43,385 nucleotides of DNA from a virus (taxonomy: Duplodnaviria > Heunggongvirae > Uroviricota > Caudoviricetes): positions 1-43,385 of the IMG/VR virus record IMGVR_UViG_2778261121_000005; one strand, given 5' to 3'. The position numbers and the translations under genes are program-made. Shown here piece after piece: positions 1 to 43,385 of the stretch. The first letter of the stretch is position 1. Each line of letters begins with the position of its first letter. A model generated the notes under the pieces. It was given only the letters and a program-made list of their open reading frames with translations. It was not told the origin of the DNA and searched no databases.

Positions 1-1131
1 CTAAGCCGCGTGCTGCGATTCAGGGTTTACAGGCTCTCCGTGGGCTAACACTGCCAGCCCGGCAGCTTTAATATTACGTGCCGCGTTAATGTCGCGATCA
101 TGGTCTGCGCCGCATTCAGGGCAGTGCCATTTACGAACATTAAGAGGCATTTTTTGCATGGTGAAACCGCAGCAACTACAGCATTTTGAGGACGGTAAAT
201 ACTGGTCAATGGCGACCACTGACCGCCCGGCCCATTTGCCTTTGTACTGGAGCTGGCGAACAAGTTCGCTCCAGCCTGCGTCAGCTATTGCTTTAGACAG
301 CTTCGGGTTGCGGATCATGTTTTTCACCTTGAGGGATTCGACGCAAACAACTTGGTTTTCGTTAATCAGTTTGCGGGACAACTTGTGCAGATTGTCCATC
401 CGGCAATCGGCGATTTTCGCGTGGAGTCGGGCGACCTTTAAGCGGGCTTTAATACGGTTTCTTGAGCCTTTTTGCTTCCTGCTTAAACGTCGCTGTAGCA
501 GCGTTAATCGCTTCGCATATTTAGCGGTGTGGCGGGGATTGTCGGTTTTGAATCCGGTATCGGTGACGAATAAATCTTTTAAGCCCACATCAATGCCGAC
601 CGTTTTAGCGGTAACAGGCATTGATACAGGTTCAAACTCACACAGGCAGGAAACAAAGTACCTGCCAGCGCTATCTCTGGAAATGGTAACGGTTGACGGC
701 GCAGATGGTAATTCTCGACTCCAGCGAACATCCAGCGGCGACTTGCTCTTTGCTATATACAACTCGCCGTCACGGTGTTTAAACGCGCTGGCAGTGAACT
801 CAGCCACCTGTTTGTGCCGTTTGCTTTTGAAAGCCGGATATGCAGCTCGTCCGGCAAAGAAGTTAGCAAAGGCGGCTTGTTGGTGGCGCAACGACTGCTG
901 GAGGGGAACGCAGGAAACATCATTCAGCCATATGTATTCAGGCTCTTTTTTGAGCGCCGTAAGGCGAGCGTTGGCCTGTAGATAACCGATCTTTTCTTTT
1001 CGCTCGTAGTACGCATCGGTACGCCAACGAAGGATGGAATTGTAGACGAAGCGCACACAGCCAAACGTCTGAGCTAAAAGCTCAGCCTGCTCAGTTGTCG
1101 GGTAAAACCGGTATTTATATGCGCGTTTCAT
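1..1131 (-). CDS. tnpB: IS200/IS605-family TnpB (OrfB) RNA-guided nuclease-like protein, complete 376 aa
   Basis: Full ORF with stop at 1..3. C-terminal CxxC...CxxC zinc finger (CCSCCG...CPECG) followed by DRDINAARNI, and a GIDVGL aspartate motif typical of RuvC-like OrfB proteins. No tnpA between its start and ybhB. Confidence 0.85.
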   Translation of the reverse strand: MKRAYKYRFYPTTEQAELLAQTFGCVRFVYNSILRWRTDAYYERKEKIGYLQANARLTALKKEPEYIWLNDVSCVPLQQSLRHQQAAFANFFAGRAAYPAFKSKRHKQVAEFTASAFKHRDGELYIAKSKSPLDVRWSRELPSAPSTVTISRDSAGRYFVSCLCEFEPVSMPVTAKTVGIDVGLKDLFVTDTGFKTDNPRHTAKYAKRLTLLQRRLSRKQKGSRNRIKARLKVARLHAKIADCRMDNLHKLSRKLINENQVVCVESLKVKNMIRNPKLSKAIADAGWSELVRQLQYKGKWAGRSVVAIDQYLPSSKCCSCCGFTMQKMPLNVRKWHCPECGADHDRDINAARNIKAAGLAVLAHGEPVNPESQHAA

Positions 1132-1980: not shown

Positions 1981-2108
1981 ATTTTTTGTCTTCTTGCGCT
2001 AATTTTTTGTCATAAAAACATGTCGCACTCCAGAGAAGCACAAAGCCTTGCAATCCAGTGCAAAGCTTTGTGTACCTTAGTTTTGTTTCATAGGTAACTC
2101 TGTGTTAA

Positions 2109-2393
2109 CTACGATGCAAGAATCCATACCAATAAGCATCCGATAATTGGGAAAGAAAAATCCAACAAACTTCCCACATCCCACACGCGTGGATCAAAAC
2201 CTCCCCACCACGGCATGTTGACACGTTTCCCTTTCCCAAACTTTTCTATCCAGCGATATTCTGCCTGGGTGTGTTCACGCGCAATGAAGAACGTACAACC
2301 GGCTATCGCACCGTAAGCCCAGTTTCCGGTAAAAAATACCAACCAGTACCTGAGCCGCAAAAGCGCAAAGCGAGTGAAGAAATGGAGTGACAT
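2109..2393 (-). CDS. hypothetical hydrophobic protein between tailspike and att
   Basis: 94-aa ORF from ATG at 2393 (track ORF begins at a TTG at 2396); hydrophobic segments; no convincing SD; sits where P22-like phages carry lysogenic-conversion genes. Confidence 0.3.
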   Translation of the reverse strand: MSLHFFTRFALLRLRYWLVFFTGNWAYGAIAGCTFFIAREHTQAEYRWIEKFGKGKRVNMPWWGGFDPRVWDVGSLLDFSFPIIGCLLVWILAS

Positions 2394-2405
2394 CAATGCT
2401 CTTAA

Positions 2406-4463
2406 TCATGAAACTTCCCCATTGGTTGAAAATATGGCTCCTCCAACTCCAAGTGTATTTCGTGTTGTGCTCAACCTAAGAGGGCTGGAGTCAGAATTAG
2501 AATATCCTGTAGCAGAAATAAAAGATCCTCCACTAATAGTCAACTGCGGAACATCGGCTATATCTGAATAAGTTCTGTCAGCAACAGTATTATTTATAGC
2601 CACATGTGATCCAAAAAAACTTCTTATTGTTTGGTTTTTAACTTTACTTCCTTCAATGGTTATCCTACTACCACAGTCGGCAATAAATCCTGAATCTGCA
2701 TCCAGCGTTGCATTCATAAAAGAAGCTTCAGATCTCTCTACATCAATCCATCTAATATCTTTTGTGGGATTTGCACCAAATACATGACAAATATTAGAGT
2801 TAAACCTTACTCCATCTTGGAGGTGCATTAATTTTTTTATATCTGTACCCCATAGCCTTGGAAAATTAACAGATGCTCCTGCATGGCAATCAAATCCCAA
2901 CTCAGCCCCTGAGATATCTACAGCCTTTCCTGAAATAACAGCACCAGTGTCTGCATTAACGGCTGTTCCACAATTGCGCATATCATTACCAGCAACATCA
3001 ACACAACCCGCACCATCAATACGCACACCAAGTGCACATCCATAAAAACCTTTTTCAATATTTGGTTCAAGGACTTTACCACTTGTTTCTGCATCACTTT
3101 CTTCAACGTCATGTCGTCTTGCATCAACATATGCTGTATGAATGCAGGTTAATCCACGATATGAGCAATGTATAGTTTTATGGTCGCGTATATTAACATT
3201 TGAACCATCTCTTACATTCCACCCTATATAACAATAGCTTGCACTTGACCCCTGAAAATCTGCTTTAACATTATAAATACAATTAACTGACGCAACCGTA
3301 CTCTCTGTGCACCGTTCAAACTTGCTTACAGGCATTGATGCCTTGACATTATTTACCAGTTGCAGGGAAGAGTATCTGCTATAAGAAAAATCACATACGT
3401 AATACCCTTCTGGCATATATGCAGCAACACTTTCCTCATCAGGAGCACATCCGGTATGATATGCACTAATTTTTGCACCAAAACTACCATGAATTCCAAC
3501 GTAGAACTTTCGAGCACCTGAATACGGATAGAAATTAAGTTCAGCTTTTTGAGTTACAATAAATGCACAAACATCGCTATCATCTCTATTTTCTTCGATC
3601 TGAATAGCAAATACAGGACTTTTTGCTGCATCGCAAATGTAAAATAAATACTTGTATTCGTAATACGTTCTAACGGTTTTAGTAAACAAACGAGTGTCAG
3701 AGAAAACCACTGAGTCTTCTGATATTATTTTAATCCATGATAAGTCACATCCTGCTGAAATTTCTATTTGCTCATTGAGCACAAAACCGGAAAGAATTTT
3801 AATTATGCAAAAGCCAATGCCATTTTTCCATAGTGGACGCAGTGCAACAGCCGAGTTTAGAGCATCACTAATAGATTTAAAATTACCATATTCCCCAACT
3901 GTTATTGTGAATGCATACCTGGAATTAAATACTGCGGCACTATCTCCAGAGTTAATAGCTGCAGATATCATGTCATAATTTGATATAAAATCATTTGGCG
4001 TGATTATTTCTGCGTTTTTATTGTGCTGGGTTCTAAGTTTTGAATTTACATGAACACTTTTAACTGCAATACGGGAGTCGTCAACAAGTATTTCATTACC
4101 CTCTGTTGCTAACTCTTGTCTTAACTGATCCGGGTCATACTTCAGCACATTCGGAAAATAGAACTGCTGTGAACCATATGCATCATAAACAGCCATAGAA
4201 TGACCCTGCACAGTAACGAACTTGGCAATCTGTCCGTTATATACCGGATATCCAGCAGCGTTAATGATGATTGGTTGCGAAACAGGAACGTGAGAACCGT
4301 CTTCGTTTTCCACATAAACCTGAATCTGGTTTTCAGGATTTACCGGGTCAGTGTCAATTTTACCGATATAAATTTTTCCATTGGCTACGGCTTTAAAAGA
4401 ACGAGCCATAGTGAAGAGTTGCGAAGGCATACTCACTACAACATTGGCTGTAATGTCTGTCAT
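2406..4463 (-). CDS. tailspike protein with P22 gp9-type head-binding N-terminal domain and divergent receptor-binding domain
   Basis: N-terminal ~110 aa ([11 protein letters not shown]...[33 protein letters not shown]...[14 protein letters not shown]...NVLKYDPDQ) closely matches the P22 tailspike head-binding domain as I recall it; the rest differs from P22. Confidence 0.9.
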
Positions 4464-4595
4464 TTAATTTGCTCCAGATACAAGGAATCGCCGCAGCATG
4501 GCTACGGTTGGTATTTGTTGCATACCGAAATGGTACTATTGTTGATTTGTACAGTAGGTTTTACGATGCCATTCCACCCATTTGGTGAGGCATTG

Positions 4596-4853
4596 ATGAT
4601 GTACAGCAAATACGATGAGGCGCAGTTCCACTTGAGGCTTACGCACGAGTTGCACGCTAAGATTAAGCAACGTGCAAAAATGAATAACAGGTCTATCAAT
4701 TCCGAAATTGTGGCTACGATGGAAGAATCACTCTCCAAACCATCACCTGTAAGCGGGTATCGTGATGAAGAAGAGAGGCTGGCCTCATTAATCTCGGAAC
4801 GAGTAAAAGAAGTTGTGGCTGATATCCTTAGAAAAGAAAAAACCCGCGATTAA
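4596..4853 (+). CDS. mnt: Mnt-like ribbon-helix-helix repressor
   Basis: 85 aa; NNRSINSEIVATMEESLSKPSPVSGYRDEEERLA resembles P22 Mnt (NGRSMNSELLQIVQDALSKPSPVTGYRNDAERLA); SD GGTGAGG upstream. The track ORF extends upstream without support. Confidence 0.8.
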   Translation: MMYSKYDEAQFHLRLTHELHAKIKQRAKMNNRSINSEIVATMEESLSKPSPVSGYRDEEERLASLISERVKEVVADILRKEKTRD

Positions 4854-4867
4854 GCGGGTTTAGTTGG

Positions 4868-5089
4868 TTAGTTATCAAAAAGTCCGTACGTTTCTTCTTC
4901 TTCAGGTGTAAGGGGAAGAATCTCTACTCTATCTATAGATACCTTTTCAATGTACCCATGAGGTCTACTTAAAATTAAAGCTCTCTCATGCCACAGAACT
5001 CCAAGAATGTGATACCTTCCAGCATCGCCTTTTACCCTGGCCCTTCCTTTGATTCTTGGCGGCATAATGCCATATTTTTTCTTTGCCAT
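4868..5089 (-). CDS. hypothetical small protein (73 aa)
   Basis: ATG overlaps the stop of the upstream gene (TAATG), suggesting translational coupling in the ant operon. Confidence 0.5.
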   Translation of the reverse strand: MAKKKYGIMPPRIKGRARVKGDAGRYHILGVLWHERALILSRPHGYIEKVSIDRVEILPLTPEEEETYGLFDN

Positions 5090-5817
5090 TATGCAACATT
5101 ACTCCCATGAATCAGGTGTTGTAGTGCTTTAACACCTTCCGCATTGTAGCGGAATGCTTCCACCTGTTTGCTGGAATGCGCAGATTTATCCAGGAAGAAC
5201 TTACCGTACTGCTCAGTTTTGAGGTTGTTTGCGTTAGCAATGCGACCAATCTTGTTGGCCGTTACTCCAAGCTGCTCTGCAACCTCCCCTGCTGAGTAGT
5301 AATGCTCTTCTATTGCTGGAAGAGGTATTGCATTAAAACCAACGATCGGGTTGATTATGCTTGCTGCCGCAGTCTGCTTTGCTTCCGGCGCAAGATTTGG
5401 CATCAGATCGAACAGATTGGTAACAGCTTCAACCGTCATTTTCAGTGTTCGCGCTTGACGATACTCAATAAGTCCACTCGCTGATTTACCGCTTTTAATG
5501 TGCTCTTCTTGCATACTTTCAAGTTGGTCTACCAGTGAGCGGCGAACGGCTTTTGACTCGCGAGCGGCAACTCGCAATGCTTGCTTGATTGACATCTCAA
5601 TGATAACCATCGAAGTTTTGTTCGCTTTTTGCACTACACTTTTTGTGTAGTGCTCTCCATCCAATTCATCTTCAATTTTCTCGATGAATTTGTTATTACG
5701 AACCTCCGGCTCACCGCACTGTCTACGAGCCTGATTTACCATCTCAAGCAGGCGCTGGCTGTCAATGGTTTTATCCGTGACAACGGATCCGATGTTTGCT
5801 ACATTCTTCAAAGTCAT
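5089..5817 (-). CDS. antirepressor-like protein (Rha-like N-terminus, KilA-C/ANT-like C-terminus)
   Basis: 242 aa from internal ATG with SD AAGGAA; C-terminal segment YYSAGEVAEQLGVTANKIGRIANANNL resembles KilAC-type domains. Domain assignment is from memory. Confidence 0.5.
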   Translation of the reverse strand: MTLKNVANIGSVVTDKTIDSQRLLEMVNQARRQCGEPEVRNNKFIEKIEDELDGEHYTKSVVQKANKTSMVIIEMSIKQALRVAARESKAVRRSLVDQLESMQEEHIKSGKSASGLIEYRQARTLKMTVEAVTNLFDLMPNLAPEAKQTAAASIINPIVGFNAIPLPAIEEHYYSAGEVAEQLGVTANKIGRIANANNLKTEQYGKFFLDKSAHSSKQVEAFRYNAEGVKALQHLIHGSNVA

Positions 5818-5905
5818 TAGGCATTCCTTATGTGGTAGTAAGGGTGTGACATAGGCCGCCAGCAGCACACTGGCGGTTTTCTTTTTGCGCCGTCCGGCGC
5901 ACCAA

Positions 5906-6532
5906 TCAATGAATCCATTCCTCGCCGCGAAGTTTTGCCAGCATTGGCTGAGCGTTCTTTACGACAAAATTGTTGGTATCAAGATTCTTCATTTCACGAA
6001 GAAGTGATTTCTTGGTTTCTTCTGACATGTAGCGAGTCTCATATGCAATATCGTAAATCCTTCCTGAAAGCTCAGAACCAATTTGCTTCATTCCTGGGTA
6101 GATGTGTTTGCACATTTGTTGACTCTTCTCCATCCACAATTGTAAGTAGCAGAGATTAACCAGTTCTTCGTCAGTAAACTGTTTTGCAATCGGTGAGCAT
6201 TCTGCCTGCCGATCCAAAATATCCAGCACCCAGCGGCGGAACTCTTTGGCTACCGGAGTGCGAGCAAACATCGCGATTAGGTGGGCACCGCGTAGTGAGA
6301 AAACTCGCACTTTTTTGCGATAATTTCCTGAGGTACTCACTTCGAGTACCTGAGTCATTCCGGCGCTAAACTCATCGTTATACTTGTTATAAATCATTGT
6401 TACTGCACGACTATTTGCGTATTTAAGTGCAGATGCAATATTAGATGATGTAAACCAAACACCATGCATATCACGGGTGGGCACCAACTCAACTCCGTGG
6501 AAGTTGTAATCTGATTTTGCTACAATATTCAT
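5906..6532 (-). CDS. ant: antirepressor-like protein with Bro-N-type N-terminal domain
   Basis: 208 aa from ATG with SD AAGGAAA; N-terminus (NFHGVELVPTRDMHGVWFTSSNIASALKY) resembles Bro-N domains; immediately downstream of the arc-like gene as in P22 immI. Confidence 0.6.
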   Translation of the reverse strand: MNIVAKSDYNFHGVELVPTRDMHGVWFTSSNIASALKYANSRAVTMIYNKYNDEFSAGMTQVLEVSTSGNYRKKVRVFSLRGAHLIAMFARTPVAKEFRRWVLDILDRQAECSPIAKQFTDEELVNLCYLQLWMEKSQQMCKHIYPGMKQIGSELSGRIYDIAYETRYMSEETKKSLLREMKNLDTNNFVVKNAQPMLAKLRGEEWIH

Positions 6533-6605
6533 GTTAGTTTCCTTGCATACGGTTACTGACATAGAGGCCCGGTTTGTGTTCGCGCACTTCCGGGCTTCAC
6601 TATTT

Positions 6606-6779
6606 TTACTGGGCATTAGCTCTTTCCTCTCTCAGGCTTTTAGCCAGTCGCTGCACAATCGCAGAGTTGATAGAAATTCCATCCATTTCAGCAACACGTC
6701 TAATCTCCTCCTTCATTCGCGCTGGCAAACGAAGCTGGAAACTTTGACTTTTACGACCAGTGTAAAGCACATCTTTCAT
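6606..6779 (-). CDS. arc: Arc-like ribbon-helix-helix repressor
   Basis: 57 aa from ATG with SD GGGAGGA; FQLRLPARMKEEIRRVAEMDGISINSAIVQRL matches the RHH beta-strand/helix pattern. Confidence 0.7.
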   Translation of the reverse strand: MKDVLYTGRKSQSFQLRLPARMKEEIRRVAEMDGISINSAIVQRLAKSLREERANAQ

Positions 6780-6890
6780 AAGTAATCCTCCCACAATGAT
6801 ACCAACTTGGTTCTAGAACCAATTTAACACCATTTATTTTGATGTCAAGTTGGTGCTATTGTTTAGCGAACATCTTTACGTTGAGGTCAT

Positions 6891-7211
6891 ATGAGCAAGT
6901 TCCCTAGTCATGAAATGGATAGGTTCAATATCAGGCTTCCTGCAGGAATGCGGGATGCTATAGCTGAACGAGCCAAACGTAACGGCAGATCAATGAACTC
7001 AGAGATTGTTCAGATACTGGAAGATGCCTTGAATGCAGAAAATACACTCGGGGAAATAGCAGATAAAATCAACAGCGTCTCGGTTCCGCTAAATGTTGAT
7101 GCGCTAGTTCAACTTCAAGCCCAGGTTATCGCCATGCAAAAAGAAATACAGGAAAAGTTCAGAGAGCAGAACGAAAAGTTGAGAGAACTGCTAAACAAAA
7201 AACCCACCTGA
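6891..7211 (+). CDS. ribbon-helix-helix (Arc/Mnt/MetJ-type) transcriptional regulator, divergent from arc-ant
   Basis: 106 aa; FNIRLPAGMRDAIAERAKRNGRSMNSEIVQILEDAL is an RHH signature; C-terminal coiled-coil-like tail. Confidence 0.75.
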   Translation: MSKFPSHEMDRFNIRLPAGMRDAIAERAKRNGRSMNSEIVQILEDALNAENTLGEIADKINSVSVPLNVDALVQLQAQVIAMQKEIQEKFREQNEKLRELLNKKPT

Positions 7212-7236
7212 CGGTGGGTTAATTTTTGCCTTTTTT
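7197..7236 (+). terminator. rho-independent terminator (possibly bidirectional)
   Basis: AACCCACC-tgac-GGTGGGTT stem followed by T-rich run; A-run on the other side. Confidence 0.7.
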
Positions 7237-7309
7237 GGACCATATTGACTACTCATAAAATGAGATCAATATTTAATCGCCCAATAACGGGTGCATGTTG
7301 AGGTATATC

Positions 7310-7489
7310 ATGGCGAAAAAACCAGGTGAAAACACAGGAAAAAACGGCGGAATATACCAAGAAGTTGGCCCGCGCGGAGGTAAGAAAGACAATTTTGCCA
7401 CCGTCAAGGACAACGAAAGGCTTCCGCCAACAACAAAGCCAGGTCATGGCTGGGTATTAGATAAGCGAACTCCAGACAGCAAAAAGTAA
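7310..7489 (+). CDS. small hydrophilic Gly/Lys-rich protein (59 aa) with its own promoter and terminator
   Basis: SD GAGGT 5 nt before ATG; upstream TTGACT-N17-AATATT with inverted repeat CTCATAAAATGAG in the spacer; terminator right after the stop. Confidence 0.5.
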   Translation: MAKKPGENTGKNGGIYQEVGPRGGKKDNFATVKDNERLPPTTKPGHGWVLDKRTPDSKK

Positions 7490-7495
7490 TAATCA

Positions 7496-7519
7496 AGCCG
7501 GGTCACTCCGGCTTTTTGA
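7496..7519 (+). terminator. rho-independent terminator
   Basis: AGCCGG-gtcact-CCGGCT followed by TTTTTG. Confidence 0.65.
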
Positions 7520-7868
7520 TATGTCGCTCGCAGAACTCAACAAGCCTGCTCATTAAGTAGCAGTAAGTCTCGTTAGCTCTTCCTGGTTCAACATCAACGC
7601 CGACCCTTGAGCAGATATCGAATGCCATGTGAGCGCACTCATGGGCAATAGTAGATAGTTTGCCATTGAACACACCTATCACATGCAAAACACCATTCTC
7701 GCTGCTCATTGTATGAGACGCTCCGTTGGCATCCGAGTCCTGCACGTCCACGCCAAGTTTTTGATGCAGGCGTTGCCATTCTGGAAAGTCTCTGCAAAAC
7801 ACAATCGTACCGCTCTCAAAGAGCGGTACGAGCATCTTTGGTACGTTTCCAATGTTAACTTTTTTCAT
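7503..7868 (-). CDS. hypothetical protein with HExxH zinc-metallopeptidase-like motif
   Basis: 121 aa from internal ATG; contains IAHECAHMAF (HExxH) with downstream acidic residues. Confidence 0.5.
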   Translation of the reverse strand: MKKVNIGNVPKMLVPLFESGTIVFCRDFPEWQRLHQKLGVDVQDSDANGASHTMSSENGVLHVIGVFNGKLSTIAHECAHMAFDICSRVGVDVEPGRANETYCYLMSRLVEFCERHIKKPE

Positions 7869-7898
7869 GGTATCCTGCACAAAACTAAGGAGGTTGGT

Positions 7899-8126
7899 GT
7901 GAAGCGATGGTTCCTCATAATTACTGTTTTCGCGATCATTTACACTATTTTCCCTGCATTAAAAGCACCAATGCAAATAATTTCACTAGCAATAATTGCA
8001 ATTGGTGCTTTCATTGCAGTATCCGTACTTGTGTTTAAGGTTTTAAAGTTTTTAGTTTGGCTATCAAAAGATGATGGATGCAAAGTTCATCAAGAAAAAG
8101 AAGGCAAAATAACCAAAGTTGACTAA
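7899..8126 (+). CDS. small membrane protein (two predicted TM helices)
   Basis: GTG start 5 nt after a perfect AAGGAGG; hydrophobic stretches WFLIITVFAIIYTIF and IISLAIIAIGAFIAVSVLVF; converges on the ejection-protein gene with a 3-nt stop overlap. Confidence 0.55.
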   Translation: MKRWFLIITVFAIIYTIFPALKAPMQIISLAIIAIGAFIAVSVLVFKVLKFLVWLSKDDGCKVHQEKEGKITKVD

Positions 8127-10246
8127 CTGTCACTAACGAGCCATGTAATAATCCCAGTGCGAGCAATGGTTTTTGCTTCATCTGTTGATAGGGTTTTCTC
8201 CCATCTCTTAAATGCCCCAGATTGCATCAGTTTCCTTTCTATTGCGCGTCTCACTTCTGCTCTGTCTACTGGTGCGTTTTGCAGGCGAAATAACATTGAT
8301 TTAAACTCAGGAGAAGACAGTAGAGCATCAGCAGCCTTTATCCTGCTTGTTTTCCCTGACATCAATGCGGACGTTATCACCCCTGTAGCACCTACACCAG
8401 GAAGACCAGATAAGCTTGTAACACCTTCCGCCGCAGCAGCTTTTGAGGCTATTCCATAAATTTTTGCTAGACTACCCTTTTCCTTCAGAAAGTTATTAAC
8501 TTGCTGATCCACAAGGCTGCTAGCATACTGCTTACCAGTATTGAGTCTATTCATAGCCTTAGCTGCTTGATAAATCGTATCAAGGCGCTTTGATGCATCT
8601 GTGCCAATAGCATCACGGAGAGCCTTCATATTGGCCCCATTGCGTGACATTCCGTTATACCATTTTACAAATCCATCAACCCCTAATTGCTGACCTGGTG
8701 ATTTAGCATAGCTGGTAAATGCTTTATTCATTGAGGTGAGCGCAACTTCCTGCCGCATATCCTTTGGAATTGACTTCATTAATTGCCTAAAGTCACCACC
8801 GTTTCCTTTTGCCATATTAACAACGGCACTTTCAACTTTTGGAATTGCTGATTGCTGAAGTTTTCTACCCAAAACGGTTACGGCATCATCTTCAATGGAT
8901 TTTCGTTTTTTTACCAACTCCTTACCAAGCGTCCATAACTCCCCTGCGCCATATTTTTCTGCGACAGCCTGTTGGTCATCTGTTATGGCTGCATATAACT
9001 TTTTAAGAACACCTGTTTCTTCATCCTTGAATGGGCCAGAGCCTTTGCCAATAGCTTGCCCAACCTGCTTTCTAGCGAGATCTAAACGCCCATACGTTGG
9101 CAAGGTGTTTGGATCAAGTCGGTTCAATGTCCGCTTCATTATTGGAGATAATTCATCAATTCCACCTATGTCATCAGCAAAATCCTCTAAAAAATTCAAT
9201 GTATTGGTTGCCTCAATACGGTCTCTTACTGGAACCTTTTCGGCAATTTTGTTGTAGATGTTATCTGACTGATTTTGTAATGATGAAATGGTTTTATCAA
9301 AATTATCTGCAAGCCTGTCAGAAACCAGTTGCTTATCAAGGTTTCCCCCAAATGAAGTTATCATTTCATCAGCTTTTCTTCCTAATTCAGTAATAAAGCG
9401 CTTATGCGCCTCACTAATCTCTGTTCCAGGGAGACTTGCCACTGCATTATCAAGAGCCCTGACAGCAGGATTATTAGAGATCATTCCTGGAGTGGCATAA
9501 TTTTCCAGTTCTAGCTCACGGATGGCATTTATCGCGTTAAAATCAGGATTAACTTCATCAGCGAAACCTTGAATAGCTCGTTGCCCGCCAATAAATTTAT
9601 TATCCATTGCGCCAGCAGCTTTCTTTAACGTTGCTTTAGATGATTTACTCCCCATCCCTACGGATGAGCGATAAATATCCCCGGCACTATTTTTAATTTT
9701 TCCTGCAATCTTCCCAAGCGCTGGACCAACAATCTCTGCTACAGGGCCAGCCACAGCGCCAATAGCAGCGCCGGAAGCAACATCGCTATTTGTTCCATTG
9801 GCTACAATAGCCCCTTCTCCAGCACCAAGCCCTGCGGCGGCAGCCAGCCTTGCCGCCCCTTTCGGAACCTGAGAAATAATCCCACCACCACTAACAAATG
9901 GCGCTGCTTGTCCAACGAACTCACCAACATCTTGTGCGGTTGATGGTTTTGCCGCTAACTTCTGCTGTAGAGACTGAATTGCGGCTTGCTCTTCTGGTGT
10001 CATATCCTGAAATAGACCAACACCTTTACCAACATCCATCAATCCACTGAGAACGCCATACATAAAACGGTCGAAACCGTTAGCATTATTAACAACATTT
10101 TCCTGTCTGGAATTTTCCTCTGGTGAAACCAAAGGTGATTGCTGCTGCTCTGGTTGGGAATCAAGCACAAAACCATCAGGAAGCTGTGAGTTATCAGGCT
10201 GATTATCGAGAACAAATCCTTCGGGTAAACCTACATCGGTTGCCAT
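8123..10246 (-). CDS. ejection (DNA transfer) protein, P22 gp16-like by synteny
   Basis: 707 aa, last gene of the 7-20-16 type block downstream of gp20-like; Gly/Ala-rich segment; N-terminal tandem LP(E/D)GFVLD(N/S)QP repeats. Confidence 0.6.
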
Positions 10247-11574
10247 TGTCCGTTCCTATAAATGAGTTTCTGACCAGTTTTAGGGTTCGTTGCCGTCGCG
10301 CCTTCTGATATCCCACTTGGCGCAGCTTTTGTCTGCCCATTACCACCTTGTGGTGTAGGCTGCGCTGGGACATCGTCAAATAGCTTGGCCTTCCTTCTCC
10401 CTAAGCTTTTTTTCAGCCCTTGAGGAATAGTATCTCCATACGTATCCAGATATTCGTCTACCTGCTGGTTAAACTGCTGCCCCATAGCGTTGGCGTTAAT
10501 TTTGGCTGCGTTAACAATGTTATCCCTCGCTTCCTGTGACAAGCCATTCCCTGCATTAAGCTGGTCTACATATCCTTTTATCTGCCCCCATATGCCATCA
10601 GAGCGCATGACCTGAACCTGTTCACCTTCGCGAACAACTGACTGAGGGTCGAGAGACTTCATGTAATTAAAGATAATCCCAAGTTGGGCAGCGCCAGTAT
10701 TTACCTTGCTAAGGGCTTGCAGAGAGTTTGCCGCCGCTCTGACAGAGTTATAATTTTTGCCAAAATTGGTAATGTCAGAATTTAATCCCTTAATTAAGTC
10801 TGCTGACGGCTTACCTTTTTGCCCCAGCTCCATTAGCTTCAATCCCATCTCATCTGAGTGAATTTGTGCTCGCTGAGCCCTGTCTAGTTGAGCGTTCTGG
10901 ATATTTGCCCATCCTCTCGCGTTCTCCATGTCAGCCTGACGGATGCTTTCATCCAATCGCCCTTTCTCTAGTTGGCGACCAACCATCTTATCCTGATAAT
11001 CCAGCATTTTATCCGGACCAACAGCCCCTAGCGTCATAGTAGTCAGCATGTGTGATAGCTGCTCTGGATTCTGGATACCTGTCTGAATCATCCAGTCAGC
11101 ATTAGCACCAACGCGATTTAACCTGTCCTTGTTGTCAGTAATGAATTTACTGTAGGCTTCCGGTCCCTGAGAAAGAGCGACGTTAGCCCTCATGGCTAAA
11201 TCGCCCATATCGTTGCGTTGCTGCTCATTAAGACCGGAAAATGCCTGTTGTGCCTGTGCAACAAACGCTGGATTTTCCTGGGCAAACTTAAATAGTCCCG
11301 ATGGGTCACCAGAAGCCCATGCATCAGCGTGAACCTTATTGAACGCACTAATAGCTTTCTGTTGCTGTTCCTGATTGTAAATATCAGCAACTCCAGCCAG
11401 ACCACGTAACGCGGTCAGACCAACGTTATTTGCACCTGAGCGAGCCAGTTCATTGTTTTCGCGGATCAGACCAAGCGTTGCGTTAATGTCGCTTGCCTTT
11501 GGCGCATTCTCATTTTGCGTACCGATGCCAGCCAGAAAACCACCAGAATTAATACCCTGTTGCCACGTAGCCAT
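10231..11574 (-). CDS. ejection protein, P22 gp20-like by synteny
   Basis: 447 aa in the conserved gp7-gp20-gp16 order. Confidence 0.6.
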
Positions 11575-31641: not shown

Positions 31642-32301
31642 ATGAAAATGAAATGGTATGAACTGGCTAGATCCAGAATGAAAGAGCTCGGCATAACTCA
31701 AGAGAAGTTAGCTGAAGAGCTTGGTATGACGCAGGGTGGAATTGGTCACTGGTTGCGCGGATCTCGTCATCCATCTCTTGACGAGATTGGTGTGGTGTTT
31801 AAATACCTTGGTATTGATAACGTCTCATTCAACCACGACGGTACATTTTCACCTGCTGGCGAATACTCATCTGCCCCCGTTAAAAAACAATATGAGTACC
31901 CTGTTTTTTCTCATGTTCAGGCCGGGATGTTCTCGCCTGAGCTTAGAACCTTTACCAAAGGTGATGCGGAGAGATGGGTCAGCACAACCAAAAAAGCCAG
32001 TGATTGTGCGTTTTGGCTTGAAGTTGAAGGTAATTCCATGACCGCACCAACAGGATCCAAGCCAAGCTTTCCTGACGGAATGTTAATTCTCGTTGACCCT
32101 GAGCAGGCTGTTGAGCCAGGAGATTTCTGCATAGCCAGACTTGGCGGTGACGAGTTTACCTTCAAGAAACTGATCAGGGATAGCGGTCAGGTGTTCCTAC
32201 AACCACTAAACCCGCAATATCCAATGATCCCATGCAATGATAGCTGTTCCGTAGTAGGGAAAGTTATCGCCAGCCAGTGGCCTGAAGAGACATTTAGTTA
32301 A
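31642..32301 (+). CDS. cI: prophage repressor (CI / P22 C2-like, LexA-type S24 peptidase domain)
   Basis: 219 aa; N-terminal HTH ([25 protein letters not shown]); C-terminal domain resembles P22 C2 ([13 protein letters not shown]...LVDPE...FKKL...PLNPQYPMI). Confidence 0.9.
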
Positions 32302-40700: not shown

Positions 40701-40919
40701 ATGTACTTGACACTTCAGGAGTGGAACGCACGCCAGCGACGCCCAAGAAGCCTTGAAACAGTTCGTCGATGGGTACGCGAGTGCAGGATATTCCCACCAC
40801 CGGTTAAGGATGGAAGAGAGTATCTGTTCCACGAATCAGCAGTAAAGGTTGACTTAAATCGACCAGTAACAGGTAGCCTTTTGAAGAGGATCAGAAATGG
40901 GAAGAAGGCGAAGTCATGA
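40701..40919 (+). CDS. xis: excisionase (lambda Xis)
   Basis: 72 aa MYLTLQEWNARQRRPRSLETVRRWVRECRIFPPPVKDGREYLFHESAVKVDLNRP..., near-identical to lambda Xis as recalled. Confidence 0.95.
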   Translation: MYLTLQEWNARQRRPRSLETVRRWVRECRIFPPPVKDGREYLFHESAVKVDLNRPVTGSLLKRIRNGKKAKS

Positions 40920-41967
40920 GCGCCGGGATTTACCCCCTAACCTTTATATAAGAAACAATGGATATTACTGCTACAGGGACCCAAGGACGGGTAAAGAGTT
41001 TGGATTAGGCCGAGACAGGAGGATAGCAATCACTGAAGCTATACAGGCCAACATTGAGTTATTTTCAGGACACAAGCACAAGCCTCTGACAGCGAGAATC
41101 AACAGTGATAATTCTGTTACGTTACATTCATGGCTTGATCGCTACGAAAAAATCCTCGCCAGCAGAGGAATCAAGCAGAAGACACTCATAAATTACATGA
41201 GCAAAATTAAAGCAATAAGGAGGGGTCTGCCTGATGCTCCACTTGAAAACATCACCACAAAAGAAATTGCGGCAATGCTCAATGGATACATAGACGAGGG
41301 CAAGGCGGCGTCAGCCAAGTTAATCAGATCAACACTGAGCGATGCATTCCGAGAGGCAATAGCTGAAGGCCATATAACAACAAACCCTGTCGCTGCCACT
41401 CGCGCAGCAAAATCAGAGGTAAGGAGATCAAGACTTACGGCTGACGAATACCTGAAAATTTATCAAGCAGCAGAATCATCACCATGTTGGCTCAGACTTG
41501 CAATGGAACTGGCTGTTGTTACCGGGCAGCGAGTTGGTGATTTATGCGAAATGAAGTGGTCTGATATCGTAGATGGATATCTTTATGTCGAGCAAAGCAA
41601 AACAGGCGTAAAAATTGCCATCCCAACAGCATTGCATGTTGATGCTCTCGGGATATCAATGAAGGAAACACTTGATAAATGCAAAGAGATTCTTGGCGGA
41701 GAAACCATAATTGCATCTACTCGTCGTGAACCGCTTTCATCCGGCACAGTATCAAGGTATTTTATGCGCGCACGAAAAGCATCAGGTCTTTCCTTCGAAG
41801 GGGATCCGCCAACCTTTCACGAGTTGCGCAGTTTGTCTGCAAGACTCTATGAGAAGCAGATAAGCGATAAATTTGCTCAACATCTTCTCGGGCATAAGTC
41901 GGACACCATGGCATCACAGTATCGTGATGACAGAGGCAGGGAGTGGGACAAAATTGAAATCAAATAA
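40897..41967 (+). CDS. int: tyrosine integrase (lambda Int)
   Basis: 356 aa, near-identical to lambda Int as recalled (MGRRRSHERRDLPPNLYIRNNGYYCYRDPRTGKEFGLGRDRRIAITEAIQAN...); overlaps xis. Confidence 0.95.
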   Translation: MGRRRSHERRDLPPNLYIRNNGYYCYRDPRTGKEFGLGRDRRIAITEAIQANIELFSGHKHKPLTARINSDNSVTLHSWLDRYEKILASRGIKQKTLINYMSKIKAIRRGLPDAPLENITTKEIAAMLNGYIDEGKAASAKLIRSTLSDAFREAIAEGHITTNPVAATRAAKSEVRRSRLTADEYLKIYQAAESSPCWLRLAMELAVVTGQRVGDLCEMKWSDIVDGYLYVEQSKTGVKIAIPTALHVDALGISMKETLDKCKEILGGETIIASTRREPLSSGTVSRYFMRARKASGLSFEGDPPTFHELRSLSARLYEKQISDKFAQHLLGHKSDTMASQYRDDRGREWDKIEIK

Positions 41968-42040
41968 TGATTTTATTTTGACTGATAGTGACCTGTTCGT
42001 TGCAACAAATTGATAAGCAATGCTTTTTTATAAGGCCAAC

Positions 42041-42055
42041 TTAGTATAAAAAAGC
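42041..42055. repeat. att core (O) copy at the int-side junction, flanked by phage P' arm and bacterial B arm
   Basis: TTAGTATAAAAAAGC, identical to the copy at 1807..1821; preceded by lambda-like P' arm, followed by AGGCTTCA (reverse complement of bacterial TGAAGCCT). Confidence 0.9.
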
Positions 42056-42101
42056 AGGCTTCAACGGATTCATTTTTCTATTTCATAGCCCGGAGCAACC
42101 T

Positions 42102-43385
42102 GTGAACACATTTTCAGTTTCCCGTCTGGCGCTGGCATTGGCTTTTGGCGTGACGCTGACCGCCTGTAGCTCAACACCGCCCGATCAACGTCCTTCTGAT
42201 CAAACCGCGCCTGGTACCTCTTCGCGCCCGATTCTGTCGGCAAAAGAAGCGCAGAATTTCGATGCTCAACACTATTTTGCATCCCTGACACCAGGTGCGG
42301 CAGCGTGGAATCCTTCCCCGATTACCCTGCCTGCGCAACCTGACTTTGTTGTCGGCCCGGCGGGTACTCAAGGTGTAACGCATACCACGATTCAGGCGGC
42401 GGTAGATGCGGCAATTATCAAGCGTACCAACAAGCGCCAGTATATTGCCGTGATGCCTGGTGAGTATCAGGGAACGGTGTATATCCCTGCCGCTCCGGGT
42501 GGAATTACTCTATACGGTACAGGTGAAAAACCGATTGATGTGAAGATTGGGCTTTCCCTTGATGGTGGCATGAGCCCTGCCGACTGGCGTCACGACGTCA
42601 ACCCGCGCGGCAAATATATGCCAGGTAAACCGGCGTGGTATATGTACGATAGCTGCCAGAGTAAACGCAGCGACAGTATCGGTGTTCTCTGCTCTGCGGT
42701 CTTCTGGTCACAAAACAATGGCCTGCAACTGCAAAACCTGACCATCGAAAACACGCTGGGCGATAGCGTAGATGCGGGTAACCATCCGGCGGTGGCACTG
42801 CGTACTGATGGCGACAAAGTGCAGATCAATAACGTCAACATTCTCGGTCGTCAGAACACCTTCTTTGTCACCAACAGCGGTGTGCAGAACCGTCTGGAAA
42901 CGAATCGTCAGCCGCGTACGCTGGTGACCAACAGCTATATTGAAGGGGATGTGGATATCGTTTCTGGTCGCGGCGCAGTGGTGTTCGATAACACCGAATT
43001 CCGCGTGGTGAACTCCCGTACCCAGCAAGAAGCGTATGTGTTTGCACCGGCTACGCTGTCCAACATTTACTACGGTTTCCTCGCCGTAAACAGCCGTTTC
43101 AATGCTTCCGGTGATGGCGTGGCGCAACTGGGCCGCTCGCTGGATGTTGATGCCAATACCAACGGTCAGGTAGTGATCCGTGATAGCGCCATCAACGAAG
43201 GTTTTAACACAGCCAAACCGTGGGCTGATGCGGTGATCTCTAATCGTCCATTTGCGGGTAACACCGGCAGCGTTGATGATAACGACGAAGTACAGCGCAA
43301 TCTGAATGACACTAACTACAACCGCATGTGGGAATACAATAACCGCGGCGTGGGTAGCAAAGTGGTTGCAGAGGCGAAGAAGTAG
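42102..43385 (+). CDS. ybhC: pectinesterase-fold outer-membrane lipoprotein, host gene flanking att-lambda
   Basis: 427 aa, complete; lipoprotein signal with lipobox LTAC; on the host side of the att junction. Confidence 0.8.
   Translation: MNTFSVSRLALALAFGVTLTACSSTPPDQRPSDQTAPGTSSRPILSAKEAQNFDAQHYFASLTPGAAAWNPSPITLPAQPDFVVGPAGTQGVTHTTIQAAVDAAIIKRTNKRQYIAVMPGEYQGTVYIPAAPGGITLYGTGEKPIDVKIGLSLDGGMSPADWRHDVNPRGKYMPGKPAWYMYDSCQSKRSDSIGVLCSAVFWSQNNGLQLQNLTIENTLGDSVDAGNHPAVALRTDGDKVQINNVNILGRQNTFFVTNSGVQNRLETNRQPRTLVTNSYIEGDVDIVSGRGAVVFDNTEFRVVNSRTQQEAYVFAPATLSNIYYGFLAVNSRFNASGDGVAQLGRSLDVDANTNGQVVIRDSAINEGFNTAKPWADAVISNRPFAGNTGSVDDNDEVQRNLNDTNYNRMWEYNNRGVGSKVVAEAKK

Follow-up and report, generated by a model that had tools for sequence, protein, structure and literature searches.

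A probable juxtaposition of an immI-type antirepressor switch and a solitary Mnt homologue in a P22-like Escherichia coli prophage

Introduction

The DNA examined here, IMG/VR record IMGVR_UViG_2778261121_000005 (43,385 nucleotides, analysed over its full length and referred to as the window), contains a P22-like Escherichia coli prophage and flanking genes. The slot that corresponds by synteny to the position of P22 immI, bounded in this prophage by the gene 16 homologue and the tailspike gene, contains three genes for ribbon-helix-helix (RHH) proteins and two antirepressor-like genes, ant and ant2. The question raised by this locus is which of the three RHH proteins controls the antirepressor operon. 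The original prediction, made from the sequence alone, described positions 4470 to 7240 as a rearranged immI, in which the true Mnt homologue lies at the far end of the region, oriented towards the ant operon and away from the tailspike gene, while a different RHH protein occupies the canonical mnt position; a different wiring of antirepressor control was thought to follow. The analysis presented here leads to another answer. The region is a mosaic of known module types and not a rewired circuit, and, as read from the sequence, the control of ant most likely follows the canonical wiring, by way of the 106-amino-acid RHH protein in the mnt position (RHH106).

Results

The genes that had been predicted between 4470 and 7240 were found in the predicted orientations and at, or within a few bases of, the predicted positions (Table 1). 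Two boundaries were revised: the start codon of the Mnt homologue is probably at 4599 and not at 4596, given that this ATG is kept in VSe13 and that RefSeq annotates a product of 84 amino acids (aa), and the Arc-like gene spans 6606-6779, not 6606-6794, with an ATG at 6779 that is preceded by GGGAGGA. The Pfam Arc family (PF03869) matches all three RHH products, which confirms that RHH106 is indeed an RHH protein and that a protein other than the closest Mnt homologue occupies the canonical mnt position.

The three RHH proteins differ in how much of Mnt or Arc they resemble. The 84-aa product shows 48% identity to P22 Mnt over 73 aa (Mnt residues 3-75), a stretch that includes the C-terminal tetramerisation region, and its best match in the PDB is 1mnt (E = 7.9e-17). 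On these sequence comparisons it is the best Mnt homologue of the three, as the original prediction had held, and its orientation is also as described there. RHH106 is 54% identical to P22 Mnt, a figure that applies to the 37-aa RHH core only (residues 12-48); a C-terminal domain of the Mnt tetramerisation type is absent, and its best PHROG is 1287 (unknown function) and not PHROG 795, which contains Mnt. The C-terminal half of RHH106 looks coiled-coil-like by eye. The Arc-like product is 42% identical to P22 Arc. For Arc and Mnt, it is established that an N-terminal beta-strand reads the DNA. The corresponding strands in the window are QFHLR in the 84-aa protein, SFQLR in the Arc-like protein and RFNIR in RHH106, and those of P22 are HFNFR in Mnt and QFNLR in Arc. 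Because the DNA-reading strands of the three RHH proteins differ, three operator specificities are expected. The RHH106 gene ends in P22-like DNA: its last 17 nt and what follows downstream match the 3' end of P22 mnt and orf59a at 96.5% identity.

The spacer between the Arc-like gene and the RHH106 gene, which are transcribed divergently, is 111 bp long and contains what appears to be a complete regulatory head. The Pant-like promoter is directed into the Arc-like gene; with 10 of 12 consensus positions it is the best sigma-70 match between 4300 and 8200, and its architecture parallels that of P22 Pant. Two 15-bp palindromes of the same type, O_L and O_R, lie one on each side of this promoter, where they overlap its +1 and -35 regions, respectively. 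A third half-site, GAACCAA, turns O_L into a perfect 16-bp palindrome at 6807-6822, TTGGTTCTAGAACCAA, and this palindrome overlaps the -10/+1 of Pant. O_R also abuts the -10 element of the RHH106 promoter. The latter was read from the sequence; it gave no match in a generic promoter scan, and a -10-like element is present at the equivalent place in loci L004 and L017. The heptamer CACCATT, located in the Pant spacer 8 nt from the -35, occurs in identical or nearly identical form and with equal spacing in L004/L005, SPN3UB and an O157 prophage, which encode related Arc-like proteins and have different palindromes. It is thus a candidate, though a weak one, for the site of the Arc-like protein. 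The pairing of proteins with sites and the activity of promoters are deduced throughout from homology, position and co-variation.

The protein that would bind O_L and O_R can be sought in related loci, which are more informative on this point than symmetry. In two E. coli loci (L004 and L005), the Arc-like protein is 96% identical to that of the window (identical from residue 8) and the Mnt homologue is the same; the RHH protein in the mnt position has the N-terminus ERFTVRMP, and the palindrome in the spacer is a different one, TGACATCAccaTGATGTCA. In locus L007 and in phage JEP4, which also carry the same Mnt homologue, the head pair is swapped for a C2-like helix-turn-helix (HTH) repressor and an unrelated small protein. 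SPN3UB, Salmonella locus L017 and the O157 prophages share the architecture of left and right palindromes, with half-sites that vary with the RHH N-terminus. In IMG/VR loci L149 and L163, the flanks have diverged, ant is of the P22 type and no Mnt homologue is present in the DNA fetched; O_L, O_R, CACCATT and the N-terminus MSKFPSHEMDRFNIRLP (MDRFNIRLP) are exactly conserved. Three further IMG/VR loci (L155, L160 and L162) carry the RHH/arc/ant unit with O_L kept base for base and, again, with no Mnt homologue in the fetched DNA. Because the palindromes change with the RHH N-terminus while the Arc-like protein and the Mnt homologue stay constant, we conclude that O_L and O_R are likely operators of the 106-aa RHH class, which would act as a Mnt analogue. 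We rejected the alternative assignment of the palindromes to the Arc-like protein, given that L004 and L005 keep the Arc-like reading strand and have entirely different palindromes.

The O157:H7 lambdoid prophages show how such an exchange may proceed. Their DNA is 96% identical to positions 6937-7211 of the window, which encode the C-terminal two-thirds of RHH106 (L023, 2955-3275), and diverges upstream of 6937, with another RHH N-terminus and other operators. The mosaic joint at 6937 falls just past the codons of the reading strand; therefore, operators and reading strand move as one, and RHH operator specificity appears to be exchanged as a small cassette consisting of the operators and the first ~15 codons.

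The ant gene of the window is accompanied by a homologue of the P22 sar RNA. This RNA is antisense to the ant ribosome-binding site (RBS) and to the arc-ant spacer; the -10 box of its promoter lies within the first ant codons, and, as in P22, terminator and arc stop codon overlap. The predicted transcript folds into the same two hairpins as the annotated P22 sar (z = -5.1 and -4.9, respectively), and 10 of the 21 pairs show compensatory changes among five sequences (P22, the window, an O157 prophage, a Serratia prophage and another E. coli locus). An Rfam scan of 2000-10500 at E <= 1 returned no match, not even for the sar homologue, and since this clear homologue was missed as well, we did not count the null result as absence of RNA.

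A second element of this kind, which we call sar2, was found opposite the beginning of ant2. The predicted RNA, from ~5812 to 5889, lies antisense to the ant2 RBS and start codon and ends in a terminator hairpin (5853-5879) followed by a T-run (fold z = -2.1). Its promoter lies within the first ant2 codons and has the Psar box TTGCTAyAnT in common with P22. Loci of Proteus, Serratia and Salmonella have conserved the unit at the junction of ant and ant2, and in Proteus three compensatory pairs preserve the terminator stem. From these features we infer that sar2 is expressed. The placement of ant2 within an ant-like antisense control gives the best contextual argument that ant2 is a second effector of the switch. 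Directly past the T-run of sar2, and 5 nt before the ant stop codon, there is a near-perfect palindrome, TGCGCCGtcCGGCGCA (5886-5901), which is present in JEP4 and phiKp_30 and, in part, in Serratia, and absent in Proteus and Salmonella L017.

The original prediction had called both ant and ant2 antirepressor-like, the latter by likeness to Rha or KilAC. For ant this is borne out. Its product scores above the gathering thresholds for Bro-N (41.6 bits, cut-off 25.6) and P22AR_C (52 bits, cut-off 22.4), and its 29% identity to P22 Ant is confined to the C-terminal 69 aa. For ant2, the designation holds by PHROG label (PHROG 1726) and, tentatively, by fold only: the product gave no significant match to the KilAC, Rha or ANT profiles of Pfam, and no precomputed Pfam domain is recorded in any of the 120 ant2 homologues listed. 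The AlphaFold model of Ant2, probably a two-domain protein, resembles KilAC, antirepressor and KilA proteins (Foldseek against BFVD, E = 6e-9 to 1e-7). Its C-terminal domain is probably a MerR-like winged helix, and the N-terminal alpha/beta region is suggestive of, and may be, a KilA-N/APSES-like domain. The start of orf73 overlaps the ant2 stop codon as TAATG, in agreement with the predicted coupling of the 73-codon open reading frame (ORF) to ant2, and the orf73 differences between loci are 9 synonymous to 2 non-synonymous. Homologues of orf73 form only 8 near-identical clusters among 5.8 billion proteins, and the operon lacks this gene in its Salmonella and siphovirus versions.

The solitary Mnt homologue has a regulatory region of its own. 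Upstream of the 84-aa gene, the sequence can be aligned to the P22 mnt-arc spacer as well as to the spacer between mnt and gene 9 of L, 720R6, Sf101, VSe13 and JEP4, and its Pmnt-like promoter, which falls below the generic scan threshold of 9/12, has TTGAGA-17-TATCAT and TTGTGG-17-TATGAT as counterparts in P22 and phage L. A predicted operator, here called the private operator, lies 1 nt from the -35 of this promoter and 58 bp upstream of the tailspike ATG. At the Omnt position, P22 has AGGTCCACCGTGGACCT, phage L AAGACCACGGTGGTCTT and the window CATACCGAAATGGTACT, each at the same 29-nt distance from the Pant -35 remnant. The remnant itself, which faces the tailspike gene, is degenerate, with CAAATC as the -10 (2/6) and ATGGCA as the -35. 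A live tailspike-directed promoter under the control of the Mnt homologue was rejected because of this sequence and of a promoter scan that was empty there. Repeats of TGTACAG near the start of the gene (4548 and 4600) were judged to be at chance level.

The core of the private operator, RTACC-N5-GGTAY, has a single perfect match in the window. A perfect site is found once, before the gene, in each of ten Mnt loci of the QFHLR type and is absent from L and 720R6, which are of the QFNLR type, so that the core co-varies with the reading strand (QFHLR with TACC, QFNLR of phage L with GACC, HFNFR of P22 with GTCC). A scan of IMG/VR with the operator pattern CATACCNAAANGGTAC was evaluated on the 120 matches listed, to which the following counts refer. 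In all 41 P22-like loci the site lies between a Mnt homologue and the N-terminus of a P22-type tailspike; the other 79 matches are in unrelated viruses. No live arc-ant operon stands under this operator in the 41 loci, and in none of them is there a divergent arc-ant operon for which the 84-aa Mnt homologue would be the adjacent repressor. The synonymous to non-synonymous differences in the gene (31:7 with VSe13 and 35:11 with Salmonella L018) demonstrate that it is under purifying selection. Four unrelated viral contigs (L035, L042, L080 and L096), with no homologue of the genes of the region, contain the pattern twice, exactly 515 bp apart, and probably have some unrelated repeat in common. 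JEP4 has a different tailspike gene, yet it keeps the P22-type tailspike leader and first codons, ATGACAGAT (L001, 3322-3510), as a vestige ~190 bp upstream of its own tailspike gene, which marks a recombination joint.

Among 5426 complete E. coli genomes, the whole arrangement was present at >=80% coverage in 13, strain 55989 included; the block consisting of the Mnt homologue, orf73, ant2 and ant was present in 61, and the Mnt-homologue module in 64. In phage JEP4, the block is combined with another pair of head regulators. At first sight, phiKp_30 offered an independent setting for the Mnt homologue with ant2; it was rejected, being a truncated fragment of the same block. The RHH/arc/ant cassette without the Mnt homologue was found in an O157:H7 lambdoid prophage (there without ant2), SPN3UB, and Proteus and Serratia siphovirus prophages. 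The solitary-mnt layout recurs in L/ST64T, ST160, Sf101, 720R6 and VSe13.

The direction of late transcription in the region is that of the minus strand. The terminator between the two convergent transcription units is strong on the minus side, where it ends the ant operon (tail TTTTTTCTTTTC), and weak on the plus side, where it ends the Mnt homologue. The slot of P22 sieA (7503-8126 in the window) is occupied by the 125-aa gene and by an ORF for a predicted membrane protein of 75 aa (7899-8126, plus strand), neither of which matches a Pfam family. On its two sides, the prophage borders on a PEBP (ybhB-like) gene (1240-1716) and on a gene of the pectinesterase type (42102-43385, in the interval 40897-43385); these genes, and a lambda-type integrase with an Arm-binding domain, suggest integration at a lambda attB-like site. 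Outside the prophage, adjoining the ybhB-like gene, there is an IS200/IS605-type TnpB ORF (1-1131, minus strand) with OrfB_IS605, Cas12f1-like TNB and HTH_OrfB domains and no tnpA visible within the window.

Table 1. Features of the prophage region discussed in the text, in order of position in the window.
Feature	Position	Strand	Description
Window	1-43,385		P22-like E. coli prophage and flanking genes
Tailspike gene	2406-4463	-	Pfam Head_binding, 3.1e-67; P22-type head-binding N-terminal domain
Private operator	4521-4537		CATACCGAAATGGTACT, core RTACC-N5-GGTAY; Omnt-homologous position; predicted site
Pmnt-like promoter	4539-4567	+	TTGTTG-17-TACGAT; position-for-position homologous to Pmnt of P22 and phage L
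Solitary Mnt homologue, 84 aa	4599-4853	+	Pfam Arc, 9.9e-15 (for 4596/4599-4853)
Hairpin terminator	4840-4861	both	Bidirectional, strong on -, weak on +; RNA fold z -3.9
orf73, 73 codons	4868-5089	-	PHROG 4977, 5.5e-54
ant2, 242 aa	5089-5817	-	PHROG 1726 'anti-repressor', full length, 3.5e-99
sar2, candidate second sar-like antisense RNA	5777-5889	+	Promoter GTGACA-17-TACATT, extended TG, 5777-5805
ant, 208 aa	5906-6532	-	Pfam Bro-N, 2e-10; P22AR_C, 7.8e-14; PHROG 245 'anti-repressor Ant', 1e-66
sar RNA homologue	6518-6607	+	Extended -10 TGcTACAAT, 6518-6526; predicted RNA ~6533-6607
Arc-like RHH gene, 57 aa	6606-6779	-	Head of ant operon; Pfam Arc, 1.1e-11
O_L, 15-bp palindrome	6799-6813		ATACCAAcTTGGTTC; symmetry and comparative conservation; predicted site
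Pant-like promoter	6821-6848	-	TTGACA-16-TAAATT, extended TG
Candidate Arc-like half-site	6828-6834		CACCATT
O_R, 15-bp palindrome	6842-6856		ATGTCAAgTTGGTGC; predicted site
RHH106 promoter	6854-6862	+	Extended -10 TGcTATTGT
RHH106 gene, 106 aa	6891-7211	+	Pfam Arc (PF03869), 1.6e-20; PHROG 1287, 2e-47
Terminator after RHH106	7201-7220	both	Bidirectional; RNA fold z -3.3
orf59a homologue	7295-7489	+	PHROG 3202, 1.3e-31; 96.5% DNA identity to P22; marks P22-homologous flank
125-aa gene	7503-7880	-	PHROG 1365; homologue of SE1/ST160 orf64
gp16-like ejection gene	8123-10246	-	PHROG 6704 and 770 'DNA transfer protein'
S24/HTH immC repressor	31642-32301		

Discussion

The results are best accommodated, and with a probability that we consider good, by two immI-derived modules that were juxtaposed by mosaic recombination in the hypervariable 'ant moron', one of which is a self-sufficient switch of the P22 immI type. 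This one, Module A (~4862-7230), is a mobile ant moron and contains RHH106, O_L and O_R with Pant, the Arc-like gene, sar, ant, sar2, ant2 and orf73. Module B (4464-4861) consists of the 84-aa Mnt homologue, Pmnt, the 17-bp operator and the decayed Pant remnant. Module A is judged to be complete because all of the canonical immI parts stand in canonical order around RHH106, and to be stand-alone because the same unit is found in phages without the Mnt homologue. The proposal of the original prediction that immI had been rearranged is not borne out, given these two modules and the solitary-mnt layout already known in L/ST64T, ST160 and Sf101. Nor is a different wiring of ant control: the unit around RHH106 is canonical, its operators co-vary with the RHH106 N-terminus, and the convergent Mnt homologue is served by a separate promoter and operator that precede its gene, as in all 41 P22-like loci among the matches listed. 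We propose, from the sequence, that RHH106 is the functional Mnt analogue in the canonical mnt position.

In the mechanism that we envision, RHH106 would bind O_L and O_R in a lysogen and hold Pant off. Upon infection, Pant would fire, and the Arc-like protein, as the first gene product, would then shut it down. Two constitutive antisense RNAs would limit translation, with sar acting opposite ant and sar2 opposite ant2, and transcription of the ant operon would stop at the strong terminator (4861-4840). For Ant and Ant2 we presume that they bind repressors of the CI/C2 type and inactivate them, and the S24-type repressor encoded at 31642-32301 is the obvious candidate target. The solitary Mnt homologue would most likely regulate only itself in cis, and it may act in trans or as a roadblock. 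The expression of the RNAs and the activity and targets of the antirepressors in this scheme, like the protein-site pairs, are deduced from homology, position and co-variation.

Several observations weigh against the two-module reading. The operators were assigned from their position and symmetry and from co-variation within a fairly small set of operator types. The C-terminal half of RHH106, by sequence, is unrelated to the Mnt tetramerisation domain. The ant2 product gave no Pfam or NCBIfam match better than E = 0.019, and a sequence search of the PDB likewise yielded no family. The Mnt-homologue module is accompanied by ant, ant2 and orf73 in 61 of the 64 E. coli genomes that contain it, a linkage that is compatible with a functional link and that may simply reflect common descent. 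Furthermore, O_L differs from the core of the private operator at only 1 of 10 specified positions and sits where Omnt lies in P22, so that the Mnt homologue may cross-bind at O_L in the lineage of the window.

One could envision three alternative scenarios for the convergent Mnt homologue. The first, which we regard as rather unlikely, is that the protein is kept as a gate for tailspike expression, its operator lying on the sole route by which transcription enters the tailspike gene and the bound protein acting in lysogens as a roadblock to read-through that is not antiterminated, or as a trans-immunity determinant that represses the Pant of incoming relatives with this operator; on neither version would it serve to control the resident ant operon. 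The location of the private operator fits a gate, in that it lies just upstream of the tailspike gene, between that gene and the terminator of the ant operon, in 41 of the 41 P22-like loci among the matches listed. The gene is under purifying selection even in phages that lack ant (Sf101 and VSe13), and the operator core is conserved inside divergent flanks. Published work also notes a possible effect of the ant moron on the dosage of tailspike and says of the mnt of phage L that it 'could have acquired another function' (PMC2629481, PMC8022706). However, the degenerate Pant remnant leaves no obvious promoter to repress, and the lack of a live arc-ant operon with this operator in the P22-like loci among the matches listed removes the obvious target in trans. 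A gate of the roadblock kind would moreover have to contend with late transcription that, by established P22 biology, is expected to be antiterminated.

A second scenario, which in our view is unlikely, is a dual lock, in which the convergent Mnt homologue also represses the ant operon through O_L and both RHH repressors must be lost before the operon is expressed; this would be the different wiring of the original prediction. O_L (ATACCAACTTGGTTC) fits RTACC-N5-GGTAY with one mismatch, 6798-6814 is identical to the private operator at 12 of 17 positions, and, measured from the arc leader CACAAT, the site stands where Omnt stands in P22. When up to one mismatch is allowed, the window shows an enrichment of such sites (7 observed, 1.6 expected), and the linkage in 61 of 64 genomes would also be accounted for. 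On the other hand, the mismatch in O_L falls in TACC, a core that did not vary among the private operators seen, and L004/L005, L007 and JEP4, with an identical Mnt homologue, have no such site in their Pant regions. O_L is kept in L149/L163 and in L155/L160/L162; because it is conserved where no Mnt homologue was found in the fetched DNA, the single-position difference between O_L and the private operator is weakened as a link between the two modules. The third scenario, a non-functional leftover of an older immI in decay, is very unlikely: although the partner promoter Pant has decayed, the phiKp_30 copy is truncated at its N-terminus and this possibility has been raised for phage L mnt (PMC8022706), the ORF is intact, its differences are predominantly synonymous (31:7 and 35:11), and Pmnt and the operator core are conserved across phages of E. 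coli, Shigella and Salmonella.

The two-module reading can be extended, and we do so tentatively. The antirepressor genes may travel as 'sar-ant' units, each antirepressor with its own cis-antisense RNA; the locus would then hold two such units in tandem, and the solitary Mnt homologue would be a selected regulator, either as a tailspike gate or in trans-immunity. We consider this combination possible but doubtful.

The resemblance of Module A to P22 immI extends to the divergent RHH repressor gene, the Arc-family first gene, the homologous sar with its two hairpins, the Ant C-terminal domain and a flank like the P22 mnt 3' end and orf59a. It differs from P22 in that the protein in the mnt position has only the RHH core of Mnt and another C-terminal half, that its operators are two 15-bp palindromes flanking Pant instead of the adjacent Omnt and Oarc, and that its Ant has a Bro-N N-terminal domain. 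In addition, the operon of the window continues with the second antisense unit, ant2 and orf73, and a second, full-length Mnt homologue lies beyond its terminator. The latter shares position, orientation, Pmnt and the distance from operator to Pant -35 remnant with the solitary mnt genes of L/ST64T/ST104, ST160/SE1, Sf101, 720R6 and VSe13, whereas phage L has GACC with QFNLR in place of TACC with QFHLR. In the Mnt subtype of the window (the class with 97-100% identity), a convergent gene of antirepressor type always follows; the Sf101 subtype, in contrast, is truly alone. The ant moron of CUS-3 likewise has multiple Mnt-type RHH paralogues beside ant in the slot, but its two mnt genes are in tandem on one side of ant, and no arc or second ant is annotated.

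The lambdoid RHH/arc/ant cassettes (O157:H7, SPN3UB, Proteus and Serratia) share the arrangement of left and right palindromes and a related Arc-like protein with Module A, and those of Proteus and Serratia also share the pair of Bro-N ant and PHROG-1726 ant2 and the sar2 element. They differ from it in phage type, in an insertion site within the tail gene cluster, in the N-terminal strands and operators, and in the lack of an adjacent Mnt homologue. In P1 and P7 immI, the c4 antisense RNA controls icd and ant1/ant2, and the likeness to the window is at the level of logic only, in that an antisense RNA restrains the translation of an operon for two antirepressors. P1 derives both Ant proteins in frame from one gene, under a single processed RNA, whereas the window has two separate genes, each with its own candidate antisense RNA.

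Variability of this slot has been documented before. It was named the 'ant moron' by Villafane et al. (2008), who recognised ten types in sixteen genomes (PMC2629481), together with recombination 'boundary sequences' (PMC2629481); solitary mnt genes and ant genes without arc were already noted in P22-like phages (PMC2629481), and mnt next to gene 9, with neither arc nor ant between them, has been described for L/ST64T, ST160 and Sf101 (PMC8022706, PMC2629481). Because both the ant moron's variability and the solitary mnt genes are published, we view the arrangement as one more variant of a documented hypervariable region, and the current understanding is not overturned. Neither a second sar-like RNA nor the JEP4 immI was described in the literature that our searches brought up. 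The private operator of the Mnt subtype, the 106-aa RHH class as a swappable Mnt analogue and the second sar-like unit appear to be undescribed.

For three genes annotated automatically as 'Arc family' and for neighbours annotated as 'hypothetical', the two-module reading now predicts which repressor guards the antirepressor operon, and the identity of that repressor is relevant to the induction of prophages and to cross-talk in E. coli lineages of which 55989 is an example. The second sar-type antisense RNA and the solitary mnt by the tailspike gene are testable candidates. If true, a role of the Mnt homologue as a gate or in trans-immunity would explain why, in many P22-like phages, mnt persists next to gene 9 after ant has been lost.

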